Of a stretch of DNA of 4,543 bases, positions 508 through 1,756 are shown piece after piece; position 1 is the stretch's first letter, and each line of letters opens with the position of its first letter. A program made the translations under genes and the position numbers. This DNA comes from a virus. Taxonomy: Duplodnaviria > Heunggongvirae > Uroviricota > Caudoviricetes. The notes under the pieces are model-generated. The model ran no database searches. It saw nothing but the letters and a program-made list of their open reading frames with translations, and was not told the DNA's origin. The stretch lies in IMG/VR virus record IMGVR_UViG_2698536484_000031. One strand, written 5' to 3'.

Positions 508-1106
508 GCAACCTCACTTCTGCTGTTTCGCAGTTTTTTAAGTTTCTGTTGATACTCCGCCTTGATGGCCCTGCACTCTTCGACAGTCCAGCGATAGCGG
601 TTATGGTTTGATTCGATTTCCTCTACTGCTTCCTGCCCGATGCGGCTAATCAGTTCGACGCGATACGGAACGAGATTTCCGCTTTTGTGCTGGTTGCACA
701 CCACGCATTGCTTGTGAATATTGCGTTCATCAAATCGGAGTTGAGGTGCCGCAGCAGTTGTCCGGTAATGTCCGGCATCCCACTGAGCAGACGTGAGCGT
801 TCCGCACGAGATACATGGTAAGTCGCGGTCTCTTTCTCTGATGAAGGCGTTTACGGCTTGTTGGGCTTGTTTAATCCAGTAACTGCGGGGCTTTAAGGCG
901 AGTTTTCGAATCTTCAGTTTATCTTTCTGTTTCTGCTCCTCTCGTCGTAGTTTCTTCTCTGCTGCTTTTTCCGCTTTTTCGCGTTCTTTACTTCGTCGTT
1001 CGAGTGCTATCTTGGTTCCACAAATCTCATTACACCAATATTGATTTTGATATTTTGGTATAAACCATTCATTGCAACATTTACATTTCCTTCGATAGAT
1101 TCGCAT
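504..1106 (-). CDS. ninG: NinG (Rap-family) protein, 200 aa
   Basis: The ORF track's 220-aa minus ORF contains ...[24 protein letters not shown]...[35 protein letters not shown]...[30 protein letters not shown]..., which matches lambda NinG over most of its length from memory. I place the start at the internal ATG at 1104-1106 ([11 protein letters not shown]...), which has an AAGGAG Shine-Dalgarno 5 nt upstream; the longer ORF start at 1166 has none. The stop at 504-506 overlaps the phosphatase ATG (ATGA overlap). Confidence 0.9.
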
Positions 1107-1647
1107 AAGTGCTCCTTTCGTTGCCGGAAAAATCACCGTAATACTTATCTCGGGCTTCTTCAGCAACTAGTACCGCTAACTCCAGATCATCAAAGCATCC
1201 GAAGTGTTTACTCTTGCCATGGAATCCTAGCCTAACATTCCATTTTTTCTGTCGTTTGTGCCAAGTAACCCCTCTGCAACCTGATTTGCTATTCTTTCGG
1301 ATCCTTATATTTCTTGAATTTTCTATTGGCAGGCATTCTCTTAAATTTTCTGGCCTATTGTCGGTCCTAATTCCATTAACGTGGTCAATTTGACCAGCAG
1401 GCCAACGATTATGAGTTATGTAAAAAACTAAGACGTGAGTTTTATATCTACGCCCATCTATCATGATCATTGAATAACCGTTGGAATCAAAAGTTCCAGC
1501 AACACTATTTAATGCTATCCTTCCCTGAGTGGGAACTTTCCATCTAAATACCCCGGTAGATTTATCGAAACTTAGTAACTCAAATATCCTTTTAACAGTT
1601 AAATCTTCTCTTTTACGGTTACATCGTCTTCGCGCTGGTTTAGCCAT
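1081..1647 (-). CDS. HNH homing endonuclease with C-terminal AP2-like DNA-binding domain, 188 aa
   Basis: Translation contains the HNH motif [28 protein letters not shown], followed by an AP2-like segment [52 protein letters not shown]. The N-terminal [22 protein letters not shown] resembles the usual N-terminal motif of phage HNH endonucleases. Start chosen at the ATG at 1645-1647 (MAKPARRRC...), which has GGAGG 9 nt upstream, rather than the ORF-track start at 1728. The 3' end overlaps the ninG start by 26 nt in another frame. Confidence 0.85.
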
Positions 1648-1756
1648 CGCCTTCTTCCTCCGTAATGGTTTTCTGAATTTGGCCACCTGAACAGAGCTCA
1701 CCAAAGCTATGGATGTCGGTATTTCCACAATACCAAGATGGCGAAAATAACTGCAT
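1640..1756 (-). CDS. Small NinF-like ORF (38 aa), possibly a 5'-truncated or divergent ninF
   Basis: Minus-strand frame reads [38 protein letters not shown], ending in GATGGCTAA, where the stop overlaps the following ATG. I recall this same ninF-stop/ninG-start junction, and an acidic ...EEEDDG ninF C-terminus, from lambda. GAGG lies about 8 nt upstream of the ATG at 1754-1756. Too short for the ORF track; homology is from memory only. Confidence 0.3.
   Translation of the reverse strand: MQLFSPSWYCGNTDIHSFGELCSGGQIQKTITEEEGDG

Follow-up and report, generated by a model that had tools for sequence, protein, structure and literature searches.

How can a nuclease gene lie within the first codons of a conserved phage gene and that gene still be complete? 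The question is raised by a 4,543-nt stretch of DNA (the window, hereafter) from the Caudoviricetes record IMGVR_UViG_2698536484_000031 of IMG/VR, in which an HNH endonuclease open reading frame (ORF) stands at the head of ninG, a recombination gene of the lambdoid nin region. An earlier description drawn from the letters alone (the sequence-only reading) had placed this ORF in an insertion at the ninF/ninG junction, spanning positions 1081–1756. Comparison with insert-free alleles by BLAST shows instead that a 596-bp AT-rich cassette takes the place of 64 bp (ninG nt 30–93) of the lambda-type allele. The event is a 64-bp to 596-bp replacement within ninG and not an insertion at the ninF/ninG boundary; the re-use of the ninG initiation region, also part of the earlier description, stands. 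The minus strand is the coding strand of all relevant genes, and the features on which the argument depends are the following.

1660 to 1619, minus strand: 42-bp remnant of the ninF 3′/ninG 5′ junction, the initiation region re-used by the HNH gene.
1647 to 1619, minus strand: the ninG-derived first 29 nt, codons 1–9 plus 2 nt (MAKPARRRC), forming the in-frame start of the HNH ORF.
1647 to 1081, minus strand: HNH_3 and AP2-like ORF of 188 aa, ATG 1647–1645, TAA 1083–1081.
1618 to 1023, minus strand: the 596-bp cassette, made of the HNH-specific part (1618 to 1107) and the foreign ninG head (1106 to 1023).
1106 to 1023, minus strand: foreign ninG head of 28 codons, AT-rich, a third class of head.
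1106 to 504, minus strand: chimeric ninG (rap), 200 aa, with the foreign head followed by a lambda-type body (1022 to 504).
1589 to 1629: imperfect 20-nt tandem duplication straddling the left junction, found by Tandem Repeats Finder.

Five insert-free (empty) alleles were used to define the breakpoints, those of lambda, HK544, phi458 and two E. coli prophages (L013 and L014). The gap between the two homology blocks is 64 bp in the empties, reading AAACGATGAATGCCGGG…CTCCAGAG, and 596 bp in the window. On the left, window 1660–1619 forms an island of 95.2–97.6% identity to all five, with unrelated sequence on either side, and homology ends after ninG nt 29, within codon 10, at the same base in each of them. 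Since identity stops at one common base and amounts to 95–98% over 42 bp, the island is not a chance resemblance. Window 1618–1023 shows zero similarity to the five empties. Right-hand homology resumes at 1022 (ninG nt 94, codon 29, TGTGGAACC...) and continues at 96–98% identity. Four further cassette-bearing (filled) alleles from metagenome contigs (L016, L017, L019 and L021) gave identical coordinates in every pairing with the five empties, and the left junction string, ...CGATGTAA joined to CCGTAAAAGAG, is identical in the 14 filled loci examined (14/14). The breakpoint that the sequence-only reading expected near ninG codons 9–15 of insert-free relatives is thus a sharp one, in codon 10. 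Its coordinates for the insert must be revised, as the inserted unit reaches 1023 when the foreign ninG head is included; what it took for a diverged ninG 5′ flank did not diverge in situ and is the AT-rich head carried by the cassette.

The cassette is composed of a nuclease body of 512 bp and a different, 84-nt ninG head. GC content is 39% in the HNH-specific part and 28.6% in the head, compared to about 49–52% in the flanks, and on this ground the cassette is of apparent foreign origin. The tandem duplication has the minus-strand copies AGACGATGTAACCGTAAAAG and AGAAGATTTAACTGTTAAAAG (Tandem Repeats Finder score 52, 80% matches). Its first copy is half ninG-derived and half cassette, so that the duplication spans the left junction exactly. 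Repeat arrays of period 10 or more at that score occurred in 9 of 300 first-order Markov shuffles of the window. The repeat may be a scar, a microhomology or a templated-repair trace of the original illegitimate joining.

The start of the nuclease gene is not its own. Lambda NinG, as translated from NC_001416, begins with MAKPARRRC (the lambda annotation has one extra upstream Met), as given in the sequence-only reading, and the string ATGGCTAAACCAGCGCGAAGACGATGTAA, the first 29 nt of ninG, is identical in lambda, HK544, L013, L014 and all filled alleles. The 42-bp remnant includes an SD (Shine-Dalgarno)-like GGAGG (1661–1657), a ninF-type stop TAA (1642–1640) and an ATG, and the overlap of ninF stop and ninG start reads GATGGCTAA at 1648–1640, as previously noted. 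Alignments with phage homologues of the nuclease begin only at query residue 12–16, close to the 15 or so residues proposed before. A 15-sequence alignment shows that the family usually starts 1–7 residues before the motif LT..L..LL.YD..TG.F.W and ends a few residues after ...HGEFA. From these limits, the window protein carries about 9–12 extra N-terminal and about 8–10 extra C-terminal residues, which derive from ninG-region sequence. The nuclease is therefore without a native start and is fused in frame to ninG codons 1–9, from which it follows that it would be translated from the resident ninF/ninG coupling site. No sigma-70-like promoter was detected within 950–2250; presumably, the gene is expressed by read-through of early-right transcription and by means of the borrowed initiation site. 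Annotators differ on the start of the gene (188, 202 or 215 aa); ATG 1647 is the proper annotation start. The ORF is intact in 14/14 loci, with no stop or frameshift and with 3 non-synonymous and 4 synonymous variants.

The gene that was entered remains complete, as judged by its predicted product. Chimeric NinG matches the Pfam NinG profile with 279.5 bits over residues 4–194 (profile positions 5–192 of 193), and its body is 96.1–97.6% identical to insert-free ninG. Its SD AAGGAG (1117–1112) and ATG (1106–1104) are located inside the 3′ end of the HNH gene, which stops 26 nt into ninG. The view that a freestanding nuclease gene entered the first ninG codons without destroying ninG is borne out in this respect, as is the placing of the ninG start signals. 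The head has a GC content of 28.6% (25% at third codon positions) versus 50.5% for the homologous segment of lambda and 46.7% for that of Salmonella phage Emek. At the nucleotide level, the head shares 56% identity with that of lambda and 59% with that of Emek; lambda and Emek share 60% with each other, and the N-terminal Cys positions of the three align. The foreign head is thus a third allele class in which the Cys pattern is kept. Its leader of 8 residues, MRIYRRKC, belongs to the type seen in Emek (MRKVRRRC). The last 26 nt of the Emek ninF (L012, 1501–1526) lie within ninG, and its stop falls at the conserved TGTAA of ninG codons 8–9. The HNH/ninG overlap is the same, which suggests a donor with the nuclease gene directly upstream of its own ninG. 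In lambda-type regions, the ninF stop lies 8 nt into ninG (ATGGCTAA), a coupling geometry that differs from that of Emek at the same junction.

Several filled copies have altered ninG genes. In Korean chicken isolates (L004 4747–6027 and L005 1716–2996), an IS2 is inserted in the foreign head at about codon 16, splitting ninG and leaving the HNH gene intact; the partial matches in these isolates are IS2 insertions and were rejected as alternative breakpoints. A metagenome contig (L020, at about 5160) carries a 284-bp internal ninG deletion (window 1031 to 747) with an intact HNH ORF. As ninG is disrupted in these copies, it is evidently dispensable in prophages. The ninG copies of the Stx1 phages and EDL933 (L002, L003 and L007) have a 9-nt in-frame insertion about 50–60 nt past the right junction, which extends an AEKAAEK repeat.

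Domain and fold searches both point to an HNH nuclease. It matches HNH_3 of Pfam with 42.7 bits (cut-off 24.8) over residues 68–107, and PHROG family phrog_99, HNH endonuclease, with E=1.4e-71. Residues D88, H89, N101 and N110, which stand for the catalytic and metal positions (D-H…N…N) of the ββα-metal, or His-Me finger, fold, are invariant in the 15-sequence family alignment. The AlphaFold2 model has a mean predicted local distance difference test (pLDDT) score of 87.8, with low-confidence ends (65 for residues 1–10 and 171–180, 47 for residues 181–188). The best PDB fold found by Foldseek is I-HmuI (1u3e; probability 1.00, E=0.012, TM score 0.37–0.40). Model residues ~122–173 superpose on AtERF1 (1gcc) with a root-mean-square deviation of 1.3 Å over 51 columns, and the likewise plant-derived AP2 domains of WRI1/TEM1 (7wq5 among the top Foldseek matches) were retrieved with a probability of about 1.0 and E-values of 0.03–0.1. 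A PDB sequence search gave a marginal AP2 match only, and several homologues have a precomputed PF00847 match. The protein is thus predicted, by sequence and modelled fold, to be an I-HmuI-like HNH nuclease with a C-terminal AP2-like DNA-binding domain.

The gene is also freestanding, in view of its own stop, the restart of ninG in another frame at 1106 and the absence of any Rfam intron family match in the window at E≤1. These observations rule out an intein and a group I or group II intron, respectively. RefSeq and two phage records already list the gene as 'HNH endonuclease'. Jersey-like, T5-like and other phages have homologues that bear the annotation homing endonuclease; these too are small freestanding genes which overlap adjacent ones, as in phage DUEC01, where one lies between holin and endolysin. 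In a 5.8-billion-protein index, no sequence fell between 47% and 99% identity, save one 104-aa partial (89% over 46% of the query), and the sole match among genome contigs was a 39% relative from Planctomycetota.

We examined how the cassette is distributed in 50,697 phage records and 5426 complete E. coli genomes, and scanned metagenomes with a degenerate pattern for a 12-residue stretch of the head. The HNH core was found in 538/5426 E. coli genomes and the head likewise in 538/5426, every sampled row of these searches having both; the uninterrupted lambda-type junction occurs in 860/5426. Among the phage records, the head was found at ≥99% only in the Stx1 phages SH2026Stx1 and AU6Stx1, both carrying the HNH gene, and the next best reached 63–67% aa identity. 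Head and HNH gene occur together in 4/4 phage records and in all seven metagenome contigs having the head; a head without the HNH gene was never found in the E. coli genomes, phage records or metagenome contigs. The degenerate DNA pattern for the 12-residue stretch matched nothing in species-representative genomes, a 40-aa head query retrieved nothing but pieces of this same allele from the 5.8-billion-protein index, and the closest heads found by phmmer among 1.84 billion representatives were 60–68% identical.

The flanks of the cassette vary. It stands behind three left contexts, a ninF truncated by a moron-like insertion (see below), a full lambda-type ninF (L017) and a full HK544-type ninF (L016, L019 and L021), and each left flank agrees with an empty allele up to 3 nt before the ATG. 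The bases 2–3 nt upstream of the ATG (GGCG, GACG or GATG) track the local ninF background, as they do in the empties L013 and L014. On the right, at least 5 or 6 ninG-body haplotypes occur in filled alleles; they agree with different empties and diverge within 3–60 nt of the junction. Downstream genes also vary, with ninH-Q-stx1 in the Stx1 phages, ninI-Q in the window and ninH-ninI in L017. For 8 indel-free filled alleles, nucleotide diversity (π) is 0.39% in the cassette versus 2.1% in the adjoining 519 bp, about 5-fold less. Haplotypes and diversity together look like the recent spread of one element over older backgrounds. The region being very mosaic, this pattern alone does not tell homing driven by the nuclease from ordinary recombination.

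Upstream of the cassette, the window has a second insertion, and the remaining features are as follows.

4440 to 4543: end of an IS5, 100% identical to IS5 copies in many E. coli.
1661 to 4440 (L006 3321–6100): AT-rich 2.78-kb insertion, replacing the middle 101 bp of ninF.
2153 to 4006, plus strand: 617-aa ORF, phrog_9230, function unknown.
1842 to 1918: perfect (AAATAG)12.8 hexamer array between the 617-aa and the 38-aa ORFs.
1756 to 1640, minus strand: 38-aa chimeric ORF, the end of the insertion joined to the ninF tail.
507 to 1, minus strand: start of a NinI-type Ser/Thr phosphatase gene, ATG 507.

The sequence-only reading had taken the ORF preceding the HNH gene for ninF. We reject this assignment: DNA homology of the 38-aa ORF to ninF covers window 1660–1640 only, no match was found in Pfam or PHROG, and phage SH2026Stx1 has it annotated as a hypothetical protein. 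It is the end of a 2780-bp insertion fused to the last 5–6 codons of ninF and should not be named ninF. The ninF remnant in the window measures 13–17 nt. Its stop overlaps the HNH ATG, which we infer may couple the two translationally. The extent of the insertion is given by two prophages sharing their gene order, the filled E2865 (L006) and the empty RM13322 (L014; ren-ninB-methylase-ninE-ninF-ninG-ninI): in E2865, it replaces the middle 101 bp of ninF and ends 42 bp upstream of the cassette. Cassette and 2.78-kb insertion are not a single event, since L016, L017, L019 and L021 have the cassette and an intact ninF (lambda-type in L017, HK544/P22-type in the other three) followed by ATGGCTAAACCAGCGCGAAGACGATGTAA joined to CCGTAAAAG..., with no such insertion.

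The 2780-bp insertion, of ~25–40% GC, is present in many EHEC/EPEC (enterohaemorrhagic and enteropathogenic E. coli) prophages and in both Stx1 phages. Its opposite-strand ORF (590/617 aa) has no Pfam or PADLOC match, and phrog_9230 only. Just upstream of Q/stx as it is, the insertion has the look of a moron whose function is unknown. At the (AAATAG) array, alignments with other genomes are broken or differ in length, indicating that its copy number varies between strains; located in a divergent intergenic region, it could be a phase-variable or typing-useful repeat. The IS5 end lies inside the insertion, ~70 nt downstream of ninE, and is missing from the otherwise 99.4% identical E2865 prophage. 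On the other side, the NinI-type phosphatase gene directly follows ninG without ninH (window 498–510), as in phages 434, phi458 and 2B8, unlike lambda and HK544 where ninH stands between the two.

Taken together, we find it rather probable that a freestanding homing-type endonuclease cassette entered a lambda-type ninG once, by illegitimate repair, and then spread; homing proper, that is empty-site cleavage and gene drive, is something we infer from sequence. The donor would have been an AT-rich phage with a nuclease gene just upstream of its own ninG. A break in a lambda-type ninG head would have been repaired from this donor, in a single entry into the nin region. The right-hand crossover would be homologous, at ninG codon 29; the left-hand join, at ninG nt 29, would be illegitimate or microhomology-based, there being no homology upstream of the nuclease. 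Only in-frame left joins would keep the nuclease expressed. Such asymmetric junctions would fit one-sided double-strand-break repair: freestanding homing endonuclease genes (HEGs) home without introns, and one-sided homology gives illegitimate microhomology junctions, as documented for T4 (PMC2988022). Spread among the lambdoid prophages of E. coli would have come later. During co-replication, the nuclease would cut or nick the GC-richer lambda-type head of insert-free phages, and repair would copy the cassette in, the AT-rich recoded head making carriers resistant to cutting. The carrier's head is AT-rich and differs from the lambda head by 44% of nucleotides, and AP2 domains are said to favour GC-rich sites (PMC10448857).

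Several points weigh against this account. The cleavage activity of the protein and its target site are predictions. The AP2 match in Pfam (22.2 bits, E=1.8e-4) lies below the 33.3 cut-off, the Foldseek E-values are weak, and the nearest other HNH proteins, in the phage collection and the 5.8-billion-protein index, are only 44–47% identical. No donor or intermediate relative was found in the searches described above. The single fixed junction pair and the nearly clonal cassette imply one origin, and all later spread could be ordinary homologous recombination in the mosaic nin region. The alignment with insert-free relatives suggested by the sequence-only reading served to define the exact breakpoints, but a co-conversion gradient of single-nucleotide polymorphisms beyond the cassette in ninG was looked for and none was seen. 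In addition, O157:H7 strain TT12B (NZ_CP038494.1) has both a filled allele (4106366–4107136) and an empty one (1636642–1636842), in different prophages. Such coexistence shows that there is no runaway conversion, yet it is expected if the gene is repressed in lysogens. The NZ_CP148349.1 chromosome also has both filled and empty junctions.

An origin by one joining event could also have been followed by passive shuffling of the module through general or Red/NinB/NinG-mediated homologous recombination, the nuclease not targeting ninG and adding nothing to the spread. This is possible, though we would not call it probable. One invariant junction pair in all copies, the lack of a visible co-conversion gradient and the persistence of empty and filled alleles in the same genomes are what it would give, in a nin region so mosaic that a separate 2.78-kb moron lies 42 bp away; many copies belong to clonal EHEC lineages, so that the 538 genomes represent far fewer independent events. 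Passive shuffling accounts less well for a cassette in at least three left and at least five right flanking haplotypes, with exchange points within ~32 bp on its left and ~3–60 bp on its right, and for a cassette diversity 5-fold below that of the adjoining ninG, which suggests recent spread over old backgrounds. Nor does it call for an intact ORF with conserved catalytic residues in 14/14 loci. The absolute linkage of the recoded head, immunising in appearance, is a prediction of homing.

Maintenance of the ORF could also reflect a benefit to the phage, the nuclease being domesticated or competitive and acting by marker exclusion of co-infecting or co-resident lambdoid phages, or in cooperation with NinB and NinG. 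About 10% of complete E. coli genomes carry the gene intact and at ≥99% identity, its expression would make use of the coupled start site of the recombination gene ninG, EHEC genomes hold many competing lambdoid prophages, including ones with empty sites, and marker exclusion is caused by freestanding HEGs such as SegG (cited in PMC10448857 and PMC2988022). As exclusion is a by-product of homing in T4, computation does not tell this explanation from homing, and the protein matches zero PADLOC defence models; we hold it to be unlikely. A dead remnant, or a broken ninG 5′ end read into junk, is in our opinion barely credible. The loss of the native start codon, two non-native termini that are predicted to be disordered and the disagreement of annotators on the start would suit such a relic. 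It is contradicted by an ORF of full length (188 aa) that exceeds the Pfam cut-off for HNH_3 and has kept every residue invariant in the family, by the confident fold prediction, by the lack of any stop or frameshift in 14/14 loci and by a strong resident SD/ATG in frame. Returning to single entry followed by spread, we tentatively extend it, with more doubt than confidence, to an actively homing unit formed by the nuclease and a portable cleavage-resistant gene head (SD, ATG and 28 codons), in which the target would be the deleted 64 bp and the nuclease would use, through its in-frame fusion, the initiation site of ninG. In such a unit the recoded head would serve in place of an intron or intein, a solution that would be new for elements inside coding regions.

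To our knowledge, work on HEGs has so far dealt mostly with virulent T4-like, T5-like or ICP1 phages. Should the nuclease be active, temperate lambdoid prophages, Shiga-toxin phages included, would offer in this cassette a clear example of drive by a homing endonuclease. Just upstream of Q and stx, the nin region would then also hold a defined recombination hot spot, which could add to the mosaicism of EHEC prophages, where filled and empty alleles are often in one cell. The architecture shows how a nuclease gene may settle in a coding sequence with neither an intron nor an intein, and with no gene lost, by borrowing a start and supplying a head. In practice, lambdoid prophages can be typed by the presence or absence of the cassette, which is a clean marker.

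The type of element is already known, a freestanding HNH homing-type endonuclease at a mosaic boundary. No paper on the accessions of this protein or on an HNH gene at ninG was found in our literature search, and the anatomy (borrowed initiation site, portable replacement head and 64-bp to 596-bp swap) appears not to have been described previously in the literature searched. The closest general parallel is with the freestanding HNH and GIY-YIG HEGs of T-even phages (mobE, mobA and seg; PMC2988022), for which intronless homing is expected to proceed by double-strand-break repair with co-conversion. Like them, the ninG nuclease is a stand-alone gene wedged between or into conserved phage genes, is present or absent in otherwise homologous genomes, and has adjacent sequence that differs between carriers and non-carriers. 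Unlike them, it resides in a temperate lambdoid prophage and, lacking its own start, continues in frame from the first 9 codons of the gene that it entered; this gene is neither untouched nor split and receives a complete replacement head, and activity is here a prediction.

At the protein level, the combination of HNH and AP2 is a described family of phage homing endonucleases, the 'IPA-HNH' of Barth et al. (PMC10448857). The window protein shares its conserved D-H…N…N residues and, as predicted, would share its two-domain architecture. It differs by its 44–47% identity to the nearest relatives, by its terminal residues of ninG-region origin and by an AP2 match that stays below the Pfam cut-off.

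In gene structure, the nearest precedent is gene 31 of Salmonella phage ε34, in which a putative HNH homing endonuclease continues the reading frame of an eaE-like N-terminus (PMC2629481). In both cases, an HNH gene of a lambdoid or P22-like phage starts with the N-terminus of a resident early gene and has thereby acquired its initiation region. The ε34 locus is however in the early-left operon and not in the nin region, its HNH is related to Lactobacillus phage enzymes and no replacement head is described there. Finally, some HEGs split their host genes, such as mobE in nrdA of Aeh1, mobA in gene 60 of T4 and seg in gene 43 of phage 25 (PMC2988022). As in these cases, the endonuclease gene in ninG is within a conserved coding region with no intron or intein; whereas theirs yield two polypeptides that reassemble, here only 9 codons remain upstream and the downstream copy of the gene is complete.

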